Source: Planctomycetota bacterium
Lineage (GTDB): Bacteria > Planctomycetota > UBA1135 > UBA2386
DNA length: 64,000 nucleotides
Direction: 5' to 3'
Assembly (NCBI GenBank): GCA_046290465.1
Contig: JBKAGP010000001.1
Location: 6,368,001 to 6,432,000 of the forward strand
Shown here: positions 1 through 64,000 of the stretch, in pieces
Numbering within the stretch: position 1 is the first letter of the stretch
How the letters are laid out: each line of letters opens with the position of its first letter
Program-made: the position numbers

Positions 1-3000
1 GGTTCCAGCCGATGACCGGCTCGACCGCGGAGAAGCACGACAGCTTCGTCGACTTCCGCGGCGGCGAGCTGATCATGGAGTTCAGCGGCAAGTCGCTGAT
101 CAAGGGCGAGCCGGACGCCAGCTCGTTCCCGAGCGGCGGCCTGCGGGCGACGTTCGAGGCGCGCGGCTACACGGCGTGGGATCCGACCTCGCCGGCGTTC
201 ATCCGCGAAACCCGCAGCGGCGCGACGCTGTGCATCCCGACGGCGTTCTGCTCGTGGACGGGCGAAGCGCTCGACGAGAAGACGCCGCTGCTGCGCAGCG
301 CCGAGGCGCTCAACGGCGCCGCCTTGCGGGTGTTGCAGGCGATCGAGGTCGACACCATCCGGCACGTCTACCCGACGCTCGGCTGTGAGCAGGAGTACTT
401 CCTGATCGACCGCGACTTCTACGTGCTCCGGCCCGACCTGGTCGCGACCGGGCGCACGCTGTTCGGCGCCAAGCCGCCGAAGGGCCAGGAGCTCGAGGAC
501 CACTACTTCGGCTCGATCCCGCGCCGCGTGCTGTCGTTCATGCAGGACGTCGAGCAGGAGCTGTGGAAGCTCGGCGTGCCGGTCAAGACCCGCCACAACG
601 AGGTCGCGCCGACCCAGTACGAGCTGGCGCCGATCTTCGAGCGCTCGACCGTCGCATCGGACCACAACATGCTGACGATGGAGGTGCTGAAGCAGGTCGC
701 GCAGCGGCACGGCTTCCACTGCAACCTGCACGAGAAGCCCTACGCCGGCATCAACGGCAGCGGCAAGCACAACAACTGGGCGCTGTCGACCGACACCGGA
801 GAGAACCTGCTCGAGCCGGGCAAGTCGCCGGAGGAGAACCGTCGCTTCATCGTGATGCTCGCCGCGGTGCTGCGCGCGGTCGACCGCCACGCCGACCTGC
901 TGCGCGCGTCGATCGCGCACTCGGGCAACGACCACCGCCTCGGCGCCAACGAGGCGCCGCCGGCGATCCTGTCGGTCTACCTCGGCGAGCAGCTGACCGA
1001 GGTCGTCGACGGCCTGATCCGCGGCGAACGCGAGGCATCCCGCTCGGGCGACCTGATGAAGCTCGGCGTCACCGCGATGCCGCCGCTGCCGCGCGACGCC
1101 ACCGACCGCAACCGCACGTCGCCGTTCGCGTTCACCGGCAACAAGTTCGAGTTCCGCGCCGTCGGTTCGAGCCAGTCACCGTCCAAGCCGATGACGGTGC
1201 TCAACACCGCGGTCGCCGAATCGCTCGAGTTCCTGGCCAAGGACATCGAACGGCGTCGCGCCGAGGGTGCCGACAACCCGGTCGACGAGGCGGTCGCCGA
1301 CGTGCTGCGCGACCACCGGCGCATCGTCTTCAACGGCAACGGCTACTCGGACGAGTGGCGGATCGAGGCCGAGAAGCGCGGCCTGCCGAACACGCCGAAC
1401 GCGGTCGACGCGCTGCAGTGCCTGGGCGACCAGAAGAACGTCGAGCTGTTCGACGGCCTCGGCGTGCTGACGCCGGCTGAACTCGAGTCGCGCAAGAACA
1501 TCGCGCTCGAGTCGTACAGCAAGGCGATCGCGATCGAGGGCCAGAGCGCCCTGTCGATCGCCCGCACGATGATCCTGCCGGCGGCGCAGAAGACCCAGCG
1601 CGACGTCGCCGACAGCTTGTCGTCGGCGAAGATCCACGGGCTCGCGATCGAGAAGCAGTCCGAGCGCCTGCGCGACATGACGATGCGCATCGAGGCGTTC
1701 GTGCAGTGCATCGACGAACTCGCCGACGTGTTCGACAAGTGCGAACACCACGATGGCTCCGAGTTCGAGCACGCCAAGGCCTACCGCGACCTGGTGGTGC
1801 CGGCGATGAACCGCCTGCGCGAGCAGGCGGACCAGCTCGAGACGATGACCGACGACGACTACTGGCCGCTGCCGAAGTACCGCGAACTGCTGTTCCTGCA
1901 CTAGGAGCGCGTCCATGTAGTGGACGCGCTGCCAACCGTGATCGCGGAAGCGGCGTGTAGGCGTGCGGACGGGGCTATGTCCACTAGCGGTGCGGGCGGC
2001 GTCGTTCGCGCCGCGGCGGGAATCCGCTGCGGGGGAGCGGGTCCATTTTGCGCACGGGTCTGGTATGACCCTGCGCATGTCGATCCCCATCCGTCCTTCC
2101 GGCCGCGCGCTCGCGGCCGCCGCGCTGCTCGGCCTGCTGTCCGGCTGCAGCAACGAGCCCGCGCAGCCCCGCGAGGTCACCTTTGAGCTGACCGGCAACG
2201 ACCAGATGAAGTTCAGCCAGGAACGCTTCGAGGTCGACGCGCCGGCGAAGCTGACGATCCGGCTGAAGAACGTCGGCACGATGCTGAAGCAGACGATGGG
2301 CCACAACCTCGTGCTGCTGAAGAAGGGCGTCGACGTGCTCGAGTTCTCGGCGGACTGCGTGTCGGCGGGGCCGAATGCCGACAACGACTACCTGCCCGAA
2401 AAGGTGCGCGGGCAGGCCCTGGCGTGGACCAAGGTGCTCGGGCCGAACGAGCAGGACTCGCTGGTCGTCGACCTGAACGAGCCGGGCTCGTACGCCTACG
2501 TCTGCACGTTCCCCGGACACTTCGCCACGATGCGTGGCGTGATCCAGGTGAAGTGACGTGCGCTGCGCGCGCGCCTGCGCGCCGCGACGGCGCGAGCGCT
2601 ACTCGACCGTGATCTTGATCGTCTTCGACGCGAGCTGCTTGCCGTAGCTGCGGTGTGCCGCGTCGGCGAACTGCATCGTCAGCTCGTAGGTGCCCGGCTC
2701 GAGCTCGACCTTGGCTTCGGTCTGGGCCTTGCCGTAGTGCAGGTAGTCGCCGGTGTTCATCGGCAGCACCAGGCCCGGCGTCACCACGCCCTTGTTGATC
2801 GAGATGTGGTGGTGGCCCATGGTCTTGTCGAGCTGGTTCTCACCGGCCGGCGACATCGCGGCGCCGGTCATGCCGAAGCGCACCTGGAACGGCGACTTGA
2901 CGGTCGCGCCGTCCTTGGGCTCGAGCCACTGCACGCCGAGGTCCTTCGGGGTCGCCTCGACGGTGTACTCGACCTGCTTGTGCTTGTCGGTCGCCTTGCC

Positions 3001-63000: not shown

Positions 63001-64000
63001 GAGCTGCACCTCGCCTACGTCTGGCAGGACGTGCTGCCGGCCGACGGACGGTGAAATTGGCGGCGGCCGCGCCGATTGGTAGCTTCATGGCCGCGATGTC
63101 GCAGACCCCGGATCCCAACACCGAGCACACCCGCTGGTCCCCCGGCCTGATCGGCTTCTACCTCAGCTGTGCCGGCGTCGCCCTCGGCGCCACGATCGCC
63201 GGCGGCAGCCACTTCTTCTTCGAGTCGCTCGGCGGCACCATCTTCGGCTCGGTGATGTCCGGCATCAGCTGCATCACCTGCTACTTCTCCCTCCGAGCCG
63301 CCCGCCGCCCACCCGAGAACTGAGGTACCGTACGGCAAGTCTCAGCGGAGCAGCCAGTCGACGGCGGTGGCGAGGTCGGCGGCTTCGTGGTCGGGGGGGC
63401 AGGCGGCGGCGCGCAGGTGTTGGCGTTGGGGTTCGATCGGCTTGCCGCTGCGGACCAGGATCTTGGTGATCGGCAGGCCCCGGGCCATCAGCACGTCGCG
63501 GGCGCTGTCGCCGATGACCACCGCACCTTCGAACGACACACCGAACGGTCCCAGCAGCGCCTTCGCCTCGTGCAGCATGCCGGCGGCGGGCTTGCGGCAG
63601 GCGCACGCGCGGCGGTAGCCGTTGGTGGGCGCGTCACCACCCTCGCGGCCACCACCGTCGAGGCCCGGATGGTGGGGGCAGTGCAGGTAGGCGAGCGGCA
63701 CCCGGTCGAGCATCGTGTGCATCGCCTCGTGCACGCGCGCCAGGTCGCGCTCGCTGTAGTAGCCGCGCGCGATGCCGCTCTGGTTGGTCGTGATCACGAC
63801 CCGGAAGCCGGCCTGCGCGAGCCGTCGCACCGCGTCCCTGGCGCCCGGCAGCAGTTCGAGTCTCTCCGGCGATCCGAGGAAGTCGACGTCCCGGTTGATG
63901 GTGCCGTCGCGGTCGAGGAACGCCGTGCGCGTCACCGTTGCGGGTCCTGTTCCTCACGCCGCGCGGCCAGCAGGTCGAAGCCGAGCAGCGGCTCGTCGGT

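Follow-up and report, generated by a model that had tools for sequence, protein, structure and literature searches.

A large, probably mostly exported set of predicted selenoproteins in a Planctomycetota genome, with none in a 64-kb window of ordinary genes

The window analyzed here is a stretch of 64,000 nucleotides (contig positions 6368001-6432000) from a Planctomycetota genome that consists of one contig of 6.59 Mb with approximately 70% G+C. Mapping of ORFs and coding scores, together with Pfam searches, showed the whole window (1-64000) to be occupied by 51 densely packed, ordinary housekeeping ORFs. Among them are genes for a type III glutamine synthetase, T2SS components F, E, and secretin, LpxD, Sua5, a sigma-54 activator, AccA, an ECF sigma factor, RlmN, ClpX, ClpP, trigger factor, MnmG, RuvA, L34, YidC, MiaA, AsnB, RsmG, and glycosyltransferases. 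No tRNA genes and no Rfam matches were found in the window. The 51 ORFs ended in TGA (29), TAG (20), or TAA (2); UGA is the commonest stop codon, and therefore the code is not reassigned.

TGA scans of the window, and Pfam searches with its 51 ORFs, identified no selenocysteine (Sec) sites, nor did any AhpC-TSA, Thioredoxin_7, or HMA match with an inner TGA fall between contig positions 6368001 and 6432000. Hairpins were assessed with a strict descriptor: the stem had to be perfect over 5 bp or more, and the loop, 3-8 nt long and beginning 17-40 nt after the U of UGA, had to contain GU within its first 3 nt. The scan for TGAs with coding sequence on both sides yielded a sole window candidate, at 37467-37469 on the reverse strand, which was rejected because it simply terminates a gene for a TPR protein (37470-38780; two RpoA-CTD-like domains), with ruvA (36852-37451) next in the same frame. 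Pfam RNA_pol_A_CTD lay before this TGA, RuvA_N started from profile position 1-3 just after it, and a strict hairpin was absent. A relaxed scan added the TGA at 28834-28836 (reverse strand), the ordinary stop of clpP (28834-29433); CLP_protease spans residues 18-197 of the 199 residues of ClpP, and only 9 open codons follow. The TGA at 34910-34912 (forward strand) ends mnmG (33089-34912) in the ordinary way. The gene after it (34922-36001), encoding a TPR protein with a signal peptide, is in frame by chance, so that the two form a 978-aa read-through ORF (33065-36001) with one TGA; in MnmG (607 residues), the GIDA and SAM_GIDA_C domains extend as far as residue 602. The only window TGA followed by a strict hairpin of the GGUC-loop type is the ordinary stop (42428-42430, forward strand) of a gene for a BNR-repeat protein (40847-42430). 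Twenty-one open codons follow it with a coding score of -0.28 per codon, and the hairpin was judged to be a chance match, the background of the descriptor being approximately 10%.

Elsewhere on the contig, the Sec machinery is complete, as an earlier note on this genome had claimed. The tRNA-Sec gene was located by ARAGORN at 5914319-5914417 and confirmed by Rfam RF01852 (72.8 bits vs. a gathering score of 47). SelA is encoded at 1310644-1311717 on the reverse strand (E = 1e-109), a SelB wing domain at 577555-577686, and SelD at 1309619-1310557 on the reverse strand. The selD gene contains one inner TGA in the context SSAG-U-AAK, the same place that had been reported, and its product scored 352 bits against TIGR00476 (motif UxxK; cut-off 125), which assigns it to that family in its Sec form. 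The genome also possesses two strong genes for heme-copper oxidase subunit I.

The raw genome scan for in-frame TGAs with coding sequence on both sides gave 130 candidates, which with 2 added by hand made 132 that were sent to Pfam. Ninety-seven of these were unsupported. Most were pairs of neighboring genes that share a frame (for example GroES/GroEL, S11/S4, and NqrA/NqrB); two were transposase fragments, and some contained no domain. Coding sequence on both sides of a stop was found for 112 of 2685 TGAs compared to 120 of 2044 TAGs and 17 of 201 TAAs, so TGA was not enriched. Read-through by itself is not above chance, and the case therefore rests on domains, orthologues, and hairpins. A TGA was counted as supported when it lay in frame inside a Pfam or NCBIfam domain, or was retained in orthologues from related genomes. 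The raw scan missed several real sites whose flanks are short or score weakly, namely SelD, the MetE-like gene, three HMA sites, MsrA, and the genes with two TGAs. They were recovered from the earlier list (SelD and MetE-like), by family searches of the genome, by reading the gene at 2991886, by a scan for double TGAs, and by a scan that started from hairpins. The gene count given below is for that reason a floor.

Certain candidates were discarded individually. Position 5858099 is the end of a STAS protein, and 4171764 is the end of an NrfD-like protein; 4680296, 6272140, and others were rejected on reading. Transposase fragments with an in-frame TGA are present at 4048606 and 6219125, the TGA at 4533750 lies away from the catalytic site of a Prx-like fragment, and 2862858 belonged to no family. 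An AhpD-like gene at 5433827 has the motif C-TY-U and a hairpin, but a hard in-frame stop lies 16 codons upstream; it is a probable pseudogene and was left uncounted.

By domains across the TGA or retention in orthologues, 35 genes with 40 TGA codons were supported as Sec sites. This independent count agrees with the at least 33 genes and 35 TGAs previously proposed, and all 18 legible sites of the earlier list were found again and supported. Pfam domains extended across the TGA for Meth_synt_2 (687606), for AhpC-TSA, Redoxin, or Thioredoxin (1207500, 1208315, 1724890, 2322227, 2746927, 2767596, 2896767, 3220115, 3673738, 3818597, and 5113979), for Thioredoxin_7 (3206721, 4520491, and 4807804), for PMSR (3811962 and 4807444), for Rhodanese (1298630), for HMA (1516270, 2971017, 2991886, 2992126, 3216888, and 3251155), for FG-GAP (3756620 and 5536341), and for T4_deiodinase (6461678). 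Searches of the whole genome by family found exactly one TGA in 13 of 23 AhpC-TSA matches, 4 of 14 Thioredoxin_7 matches, and 2 of 5 HMA matches.

Thioredoxin-fold proteins, peroxiredoxins, MsrA, rhodanese, and HMA metal-binding proteins make up the bulk of the set, which also has deiodinase-like proteins, one DsbD-like protein, two MsrA-type proteins, and five HMA genes. The TlpA/ResA-type and other thioredoxin-fold oxidoreductases carry U-x-x-C, and about a dozen proteins belong to no catalogued selenoprotein family. Placement of the TGA at redox or metal sites, another claim of the note, held at CxxC, T-x-x-C, GCFWG, and MxCxxC positions; in the MetE-like protein, the TGA lies off the textbook zinc ligands but aligns with a conserved Cys. 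Signal-peptide-like N-termini were flagged in 27 of the 35 genes by a crude rule of our own rather than a trained predictor, of which by eye at least two flags were wrong and two real ones were missed; on this heuristic, the view that most products carry signal peptides was upheld. Periplasmic export and roles in redox chemistry or metal binding would be consistent with these motifs and N-termini.

Curated family models gave results of varying strength. The gene with TGAs at 4807444 and 4807804 scored 362.9 bits against NF041383, the VPGUxxT family thioredoxin-like (seleno)protein, type 2 (cut-off 275), with a match covering profile positions 1-287 of 287 and the motif VPG-U-STC; this member has a second Sec in GMS-U-FWEGE. 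The gene at 3811962 encodes a Sec-MsrA (PF01625; PMSR 143 bits, residues 60-195) with the motif ALG-U-FWGPD. Four other models, NF041115, NF049953, NF040769, and NF038285 (deiodinase-related), match around the Sec site but score below their curated cut-offs here. The SelL-related gene reached 103.7 bits against NF040769 (SelL-related redox protein; cut-off 120), with both AhpC-TSA_2 and AhpC-TSA of Pfam crossing its TGA, and the PrxU model gave 158 bits (cut-off 270). Scores against NF041115, the UxxU metal-binding (seleno)protein, were 54.7 and 32.4 bits (cut-off 95). The HMA genes, with the motifs U-GG-C, U-LQ-C, and U-AS-C, are members of the Pfam HMA fold that fall outside NF041115, having U-x-x-C where that model has U-x-x-U. 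At 1490290, the evidence consists of a hairpin and a weak match to NF049953, the zinc ribbon-containing (seleno)protein DG (51.4 bits vs. a cut-off of 130, profile positions 64-172 only), by which the gene is like that family but scores below its threshold. Among the families without a Pfam or NCBIfam model are double-Sec tails, with U-AG-U where a MoxR/Bat-type operon ends and G-U-TGT-U in a long coiled-coil protein.

A strict hairpin followed 27 of the 40 Sec TGAs. The background was approximately 10%, whether taken from random sense codons (1297 of 12551), Cys codons (1469 of 14593), or TGAs after coding sequence (260 of 2689). For stops flanked by coding sequence, the hairpin was present at 25 of 112 TGAs, 12 of 120 TAGs, and 1 of 17 TAAs. 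The GU-loop hairpin that had been described downstream of the TGAs is thus enriched, although 13 of the 40, including the SelD site, lack one by the strict descriptor. Most of those 13 allow a looser hairpin, but loose hairpins are common at 70% G+C. No Rfam SECIS family matched at the 9 selenoprotein loci searched. The loops recur in three types, GGUC, AGUU(C), and CGUGA/C; several read GGUC, which is the loop of the fdhF SECIS element. The genome shares with the E. coli fdhF paradigm the tRNA-Sec, SelA, SelB, and SelD, an intragenic hairpin just after the UGA, and a GU in the apical loop. It differs in having these three recurring loop types and no Sec-containing formate dehydrogenase; all TIGR01553 matches in the genome were below the cut-off, and none had a TGA. 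FdhA, the most widespread bacterial selenoprotein (PMC13188914), therefore does not anchor the trait here.

Ten families were searched for orthologues in 20 related genomes. Nine of them had orthologues retaining the TGA in 6 to 11 of 12 genomes from the same genus; the MetE-like gene was present in 1 of these 12, and its orthologue of 84% identity has the TGA. FG-GAP had 11 full-length orthologues (59-77% identity), each with 1 TGA, which occupied the same column in 6 of 6 aligned sequences. In the GCT-U family, 28 of 28 matches from other genomes had 1 TGA. The TGA was kept in 9 of 9 site-spanning matches for 4743133, 13 of 13 for 3355753, 8 of 8 matches for 5453431, and 8 of 8 for 148912. 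Both TGAs of 1516015/1516270 were present in 11 orthologues. For 4117601/4117589, 8 orthologues had 2 TGAs, 2 had 1, and one of 51% identity had 0; for 5106318/5106327, the numbers were 7 with 2, 4 with 1, and one of 39% identity with 0. The orthologues with 1 or 0 TGAs imply a Cys at the position aligned with 4117601 and 5106318. Sec and Cys were aligned directly for the MetE-like family alone, in which the TGA aligns with a conserved Cys (2 of 2 homologues of 42-44% identity). Judging from these orthologues, the selenoprotein set is a trait of the genus or lineage. Synonymous-site conservation in the FG-GAP hairpin, 8 of 10 columns compared to 80 of 157, did not reach significance (Fisher p = 0.10).

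We estimate a probability of roughly 90% that approximately 40 UGA codons in approximately 35 genes are decoded as Sec by a complete bacterial system. SelB with Sec-tRNA-Sec would be expected to bind an intragenic hairpin that starts approximately 10-25 nt past the UGA, and Sec would then be inserted instead of termination, with UGA elsewhere staying the main stop codon. Most products would be exported or lipoprotein-like, and the set is common to other genomes of the genus. The TGAs could instead be true stops, either between two neighboring genes or after a truncated gene that a chance open frame follows at 70% G+C. Such is the right reading for 97 of the 132 scan candidates, including the window pair of the RpoA-CTD gene and ruvA, and per stop codon, pairs with coding on both sides are as frequent for the controls TAG and TAA as for TGA. 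For the supported sites it is very improbable, as a single Pfam or NCBIfam domain crosses the TGA or orthologues with identities down to 31-59% keep both frame and TGA, the TGA stands at a CxxC, T-x-x-C, GCFWG, or MxCxxC position, and a start codon context is unneeded.

Probable pseudogenes do exist in this genome (5433827, 4533750, and the transposase fragments 4048606 and 6219125), and the TGAs could likewise be nonsense mutations in decaying redox genes, or assembly errors. That explanation is extremely improbable, given that up to 11 other genomes carry the TGA at an identical position, with proteins that are 59-87% identical before and after it, which also makes assembly errors unlikely. 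Moreover, the stops are always TGA and never TAG or TAA, hairpins are enriched, and Sec and Cys are exchanged among orthologues (aligned for MetE-like and implied for 4117601 and 5106318). Another scenario is that read-through of UGA inserts Cys, Trp, or Gly, whether through a partial change of the code or through near-cognate or suppressor decoding, and ARAGORN does list an odd tRNA with a four-base anticodon at 4452296-4452383. We give this scenario a slight chance, because the full Sec machinery is present with a SelD that itself needs read-through, UGA ends 29 of the 51 window ORFs under an unreassigned code, SelB-type GU-loop hairpins follow sites that correspond to active-site Cys positions, and one gene exceeds the cut-off of a curated selenoprotein model (NF041383).

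With Sec decoding as the preferred reading, the set can be compared to published selenoproteomes. Planctomycete selenoproteins as such are not new, having been reported by Kim et al. in 2016 (PMC4807772), whose Table S9 lists 10 candidates in one planctomycete genome and 3 in another vs. the 35 genes here; the candidates of that table include FG-GAP/ASPIC-UnbV proteins, and each was annotated as two separate genes. Both sets contain thiol-disulfide isomerase-like thioredoxins, peroxiredoxin/AhpC, MsrA, and FG-GAP/ASPIC-UnbV proteins. Table S9 lacks the HMA, MetE-like, rhodanese, deiodinase-like, GCT-U, and double-Sec tail proteins, all of which are present here, and its FG-GAP TGAs aligned to Gly in the closest database match, whereas ours have the motif W-U-C. 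The 2026 review (PMC13188914) has no occurrence of "Planctomyc" in its main text, in agreement with the earlier note. The main text of the BSepDB paper (PMC13326102) has none either; its web database or Fig. 1B (top 20 phyla) may list Planctomycetota. Table 1 of the review does not cover at least a third of the genes, where about a third had been claimed; the uncovered ones comprise 9 without a Pfam or NCBIfam family, 5 of HMA type, 2 with FG-GAP, and the MetE-like one (PMC13188914).

The claim that this genome is among the richest outside Thermodesulfobacteriota and Methylomirabilota failed as worded, since the top ten selenoproteomes in the main text of the BSepDB paper have 46-63 genes and include UBA8248/Nitrospinota and Dehalococcoidia (PMC13326102). 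As far as that text and the review describe them, selenoprotein-rich bacteria (the Olavius Delta 1 symbiont, Desulfobacterota, UBA8248/Nitrospinota, Dehalococcoidia, and a Methylomirabilota MAG) resemble this planctomycete in having dozens of genes, a dominance of thioredoxin-fold UxxC/CxxU proteins, and some two-Sec proteins; they differ in phylum and, for the top ten, in having 46-63 genes vs. 35 here. No members of the hydrogenase, Hdr, Grd, or Fdh families of anaerobes were seen among the 35 genes. The richest selenoproteomes are predominantly those of anaerobes, and aerobic bacteria seldom keep selenoproteins (PMC13188914); approximately 35 Sec genes throughout a genus, together with two strong heme-copper oxidase subunit I genes, fit that rule awkwardly.

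Of 401 genomes sampled from the phylum, 304 encode SelA. With the new families, this presence in about three quarters of the sample would, if the reading is true, make Planctomycetota an overlooked Sec reservoir. We consider it an even bet that a planctomycete lineage capable of aerobic respiration has a largely extracytoplasmic selenoproteome, with at least 9 families that have neither a Pfam or NCBIfam model nor an entry in the 2026 catalogue, and that the phylum is a major such reservoir outside the anaerobes. The broader interpretation in the earlier note is thus supported in part: the set is large, most of its products look exported, and many of its families are uncatalogued. Candidate new Sec families are the Trx-like C-x-U proteins, the vicinal U-C of FG-GAP proteins, the U-x-x-C HMA lipoproteins, and the double-Sec tails. 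Under the standard code, all 35 genes are split or truncated, so public databases would hold fragments only. The earlier statement that gene callers split or cut every one of them was checked indirectly, and stood for one family: the best 120 public homologues of the Trx-like GCT-U-NNG proteins, from Planctomycetota and Armatimonadota-type MAGs, all begin just after the TGA and are missing the N-terminal part with the active site, for which reason the family may be Sec-only and systematically mis-called.

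The predicted selenoprotein genes observed in this planctomycete genome form a real set, and the predicted mechanism is ordinary SelB/SECIS recoding; the given window holds no part of the set. The earlier note had claimed at least 33 hidden genes with 35 TGA codons. That claim is real but its number is somewhat understated, since our final list contains 35 genes with 40 TGAs, including all 18 sites legible in the note's own list. The result is of moderate interest for the size of the set, the apparent export of its products and the many uncatalogued families.

Using a codon log-odds score trained on long, high-GC3 ORFs, we scanned for every TGA with a same-frame coding signal on both sides, which returned 130 sites. 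The SelD and MetE-like sites were joined to these by hand, and the read-through translations of all 132 candidates were run against Pfam. The final list includes 35 TGAs (29 genes) from among these candidates; the other 97 were unsupported, and the majority of them were two neighbouring genes sharing one frame. As a control, coding sequence on both sides was found at 112 of 2685 TGA, 120 of 2044 TAG and 17 of 201 TAA stops. Because TAG and TAA stops pair as often as TGA, the raw read-through criterion is no evidence. One domain spanned the TGA at 25 TGAs (23 genes). A double-TGA scan, genome family searches and a hairpin-first scan supplied further sites, as did reading the tandem-HMA gene at 2991886.

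Positions below are contig coordinates and mark where each TGA begins on its own strand; U denotes the predicted selenocysteine (Sec). Thioredoxin- and peroxiredoxin-type products comprised a Trx-like protein (W-U-GPC, 1207500), a Prx (TFV-U, 1208315), PrxQ (2767596), a Prx-like protein (W-U-PYC, 3818597), a Thioredoxin_7 protein (W-U-GWC, 3206721), TlpA-like proteins (2746927, 2896767, 3673738 and 5113979), a deiodinase/Redoxin-like protein (2322227), a deiodinase-like protein (6461678) and a SelL-like protein (1724890). HMA-type products were an HMA-like protein with two Sec (1516015 and 1516270), a lipoprotein (U-GG-C, 2971017), a tandem HMA protein with GMT-U-GGC in each domain (2992126 and 2991886), and HMA proteins with U-LQ-C (3216888) and U-AS-C (3251155). 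The list also held SelD (1310527), a MetE-like protein (687606), a rhodanese (H-U-GSG, 1298630), MsrA (G-U-FWG, 3811962), a weak DG-like candidate (1490290), an H-U-GPC protein (3220115), a DsbD_N-containing protein (GYI-U-ICMDH, 3355753), a DsbD-like protein (N-U-GSC, 4520491), FG-GAP proteins (W-U-C at 3756620; 5536341) and a VPGUxxT type 2 protein (4807804 and 4807444). The remainder were two members of a GCT-U family (3133119 and 3141743), a secreted protein (GSC-U-GRG, 148912), a coiled-coil protein (G-U-TGT-U-SG, 4117601 and 4117589), a GFA-U-SAL protein (4743133), a U-AG-U protein whose gene closes a MoxR/Bat-type operon (5106318 and 5106327) and a lipoprotein (G-U-FLC, 5453431).

Other candidates were rejected. 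An AhpD/CMD-like gene at 5433827(+) (locus L134:480-857) had C-TY-U and a SECIS-like hairpin, but a TAA or TAG lay in frame 16 codons upstream, inside the conserved N-terminal half; this is probably a selenoprotein gene turned pseudogene, or an assembly error. The in-frame TGAs at 4048606(-) and 6219125(+) belonged to transposase genes, one of them carrying an rve_3 integrase core and the other ISKra4-like, which are most likely decayed IS copies.

Orthologues of ten families, among them those that Pfam did not support, were sought in 20 related genomes (12 congeneric and 8 from the same order), and in 10 of 10 families they retained a single reading frame and the TGA. All 6 aligned FG-GAP sequences had the TGA in one alignment column, within the invariant LDF(G/N)NW-U-CIGMSPQFVDF. 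Orthologues of the double-Sec genes 4117601/4117589 and 5106318/5106327 had two, one or no TGA, the pattern that would be expected of Sec/Cys exchange, and two homologues (42-44% identity) had Cys aligned to the U of the MetE-like protein. The 4807804/4807444 product scored above the cut-off of NCBIfam NF041383; other selenoprotein NCBIfam models gave sub-threshold matches only.

The best single hairpins after supported TGAs had recurring apical loops, namely GGUC, AGUU(C) and CGUGA/C. A strict descriptor (perfect stem of at least 5 bp, loop of 3-8 nt with GU in its first 3 nt, loop start 17-40 nt after the U of UGA) matched 18 of the 25 first supported TGAs compared to 5 of the 97 other candidates. 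Its background was 10.3% at random sense codons, 10.1% at Cys codons and 9.7% at TGAs after coding sequence. On the final list, 27 of 40 TGAs passed and 13 failed. A test for conserved synonymous sites across one hairpin did not reach significance.

All four components of the machinery named in the earlier note were found: tRNA-Sec (5914319-5914417, anticodon TCA; Rfam RF01852, 72.8 bits), SelA, the SelB winged-helix domain, and a Sec-form SelD with one inner TGA in the context SSAG-U-AAK. The selA and selD genes are adjacent (1309619-1311717(-), selA upstream), with selB (577555) and tRNA-Sec (5914319) far from the pair. The selenouridine synthase MnmH is also encoded, as are two strong genes for heme-copper oxidase subunit I; no Sec-type FdhA was found in the genome. 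A tRNA with a four-base anticodon (gatc) lies at 4452296-4452383, its identity not determined by ARAGORN.

Signal-peptide-like N-termini were flagged in 27 of the 35 genes by a crude rule (by eye, at least 2 flags were wrong and 2 real ones were missed), in agreement with the claim that most products carry signal peptides. SelD, the MetE-like protein, Prx, PrxQ, the SelL-like protein, the Prx-like protein at 3818597 and DG looked cytoplasmic.

No Pfam or NCBIfam model matched the products of 148912, 3133119, 3141743, 4117601, 4743133, 5106318 or 5453431; none matched that of 1516015/1516270 beyond weak HMA, and none matched at the site of 3355753, where DsbD_N lay upstream only. The GCT-U family had 287 public homologues at E <= 1e-5. 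Among the best 120 of these (P0001-P0120), query coverage was at most 74% in each, no full-length (Cys) form was present, and the four homologues looked at started a few residues past the TGA. These 120 were named hypothetical proteins and came mostly from Planctomycetota and from MAGs labelled Fimbriimonadaceae or Chthonomonas. Thioredoxin_7 matched weakly across the TGA of 3141743 (E = 0.002), which suggests that the family may be Trx-like in fold and have C-x-U as its centre.

The 2026 review (PMC13188914) covers 119 selenoprotein families, gives a record of 57-63 genes and states that aerobes rarely keep selenoproteins. As the earlier note had said, Planctomycetota are not mentioned in its main text, and Table 1 has no MetE-like, HMA (PF00403) or FG-GAP entry. 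The near-record richness that had been proposed is overstated: the 35 genes here compare with 46-63 in the top-ten genomes of BSepDB (57,630 entries in 16,621 species, about 3.5 per species on average), none of which is a planctomycete (PMC13326102). Counting against novelty, a sample of 401 genomes of the phylum contained 304 with SelA. Nine of the ten searched families were represented in 6 to 11 of the 12 congeneric genomes, and the MetE-like gene in 1 of 12. Table S9 of Kim et al. 2016 (PMC4807772) lists planctomycete candidates, 10 from one genome and 3 from a second, including FG-GAP/ASPIC-UnbV proteins, all annotated as two genes. Planctomyc, FG-GAP and methionine synthase are absent from the main text of deep-Sep (PMC12013277), and literature searches on selenoproteins with Planctomycetota or Planctomycetes turned up no publication describing a large selenoproteome in this group.

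The genome is a single contig of 6,594,045 bp (about 70% G+C), along which the claimed finding spans 687606-6461678 and the window covers 6368001-6432000. In the window, the coding-score map gave 51 tightly spaced ORFs ending in 29 TGA, 20 TAG and 2 TAA, identified by Pfam as ordinary housekeeping and envelope genes; no tRNA was found there and no Rfam family matched. Scans singled out three window TGAs, all normal stops: 28834-28836(-) is the stop of clpP, 37467-37469(-) terminates a TPR protein that has two RpoA-CTD-like domains, with ruvA following in frame, and 42428-42430(+) is the stop of a BNR-repeat gene, its GGUC hairpin being judged a chance match. A relaxed TGA scan added a weak fourth match at 42781(+). 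Whole-genome family searches returned no TGA-containing AhpC-TSA, Thioredoxin_7 or HMA match in the window, and the claimed selenoproteome therefore lies wholly outside it.

The TPR gene (window 37470-38780(-)), directly upstream of ruvA and in the same frame, has an unusual domain combination, with Pfam RNA_pol_A_CTD matching in 2 stretches (140 bits). The longest window stretch without a scored ORF (15411-16237, 827 nt) is flanked by a Sua5/LMWPc fusion gene on one side and by the gene for a sigma-54-dependent response regulator on the other. A plastocyanin/azurin-type cupredoxin gene (2065-2556(+)) adjoins a DUF4399 gene and is also near a type II secretion cluster of GspF, GspE and secretin (3532-9015).
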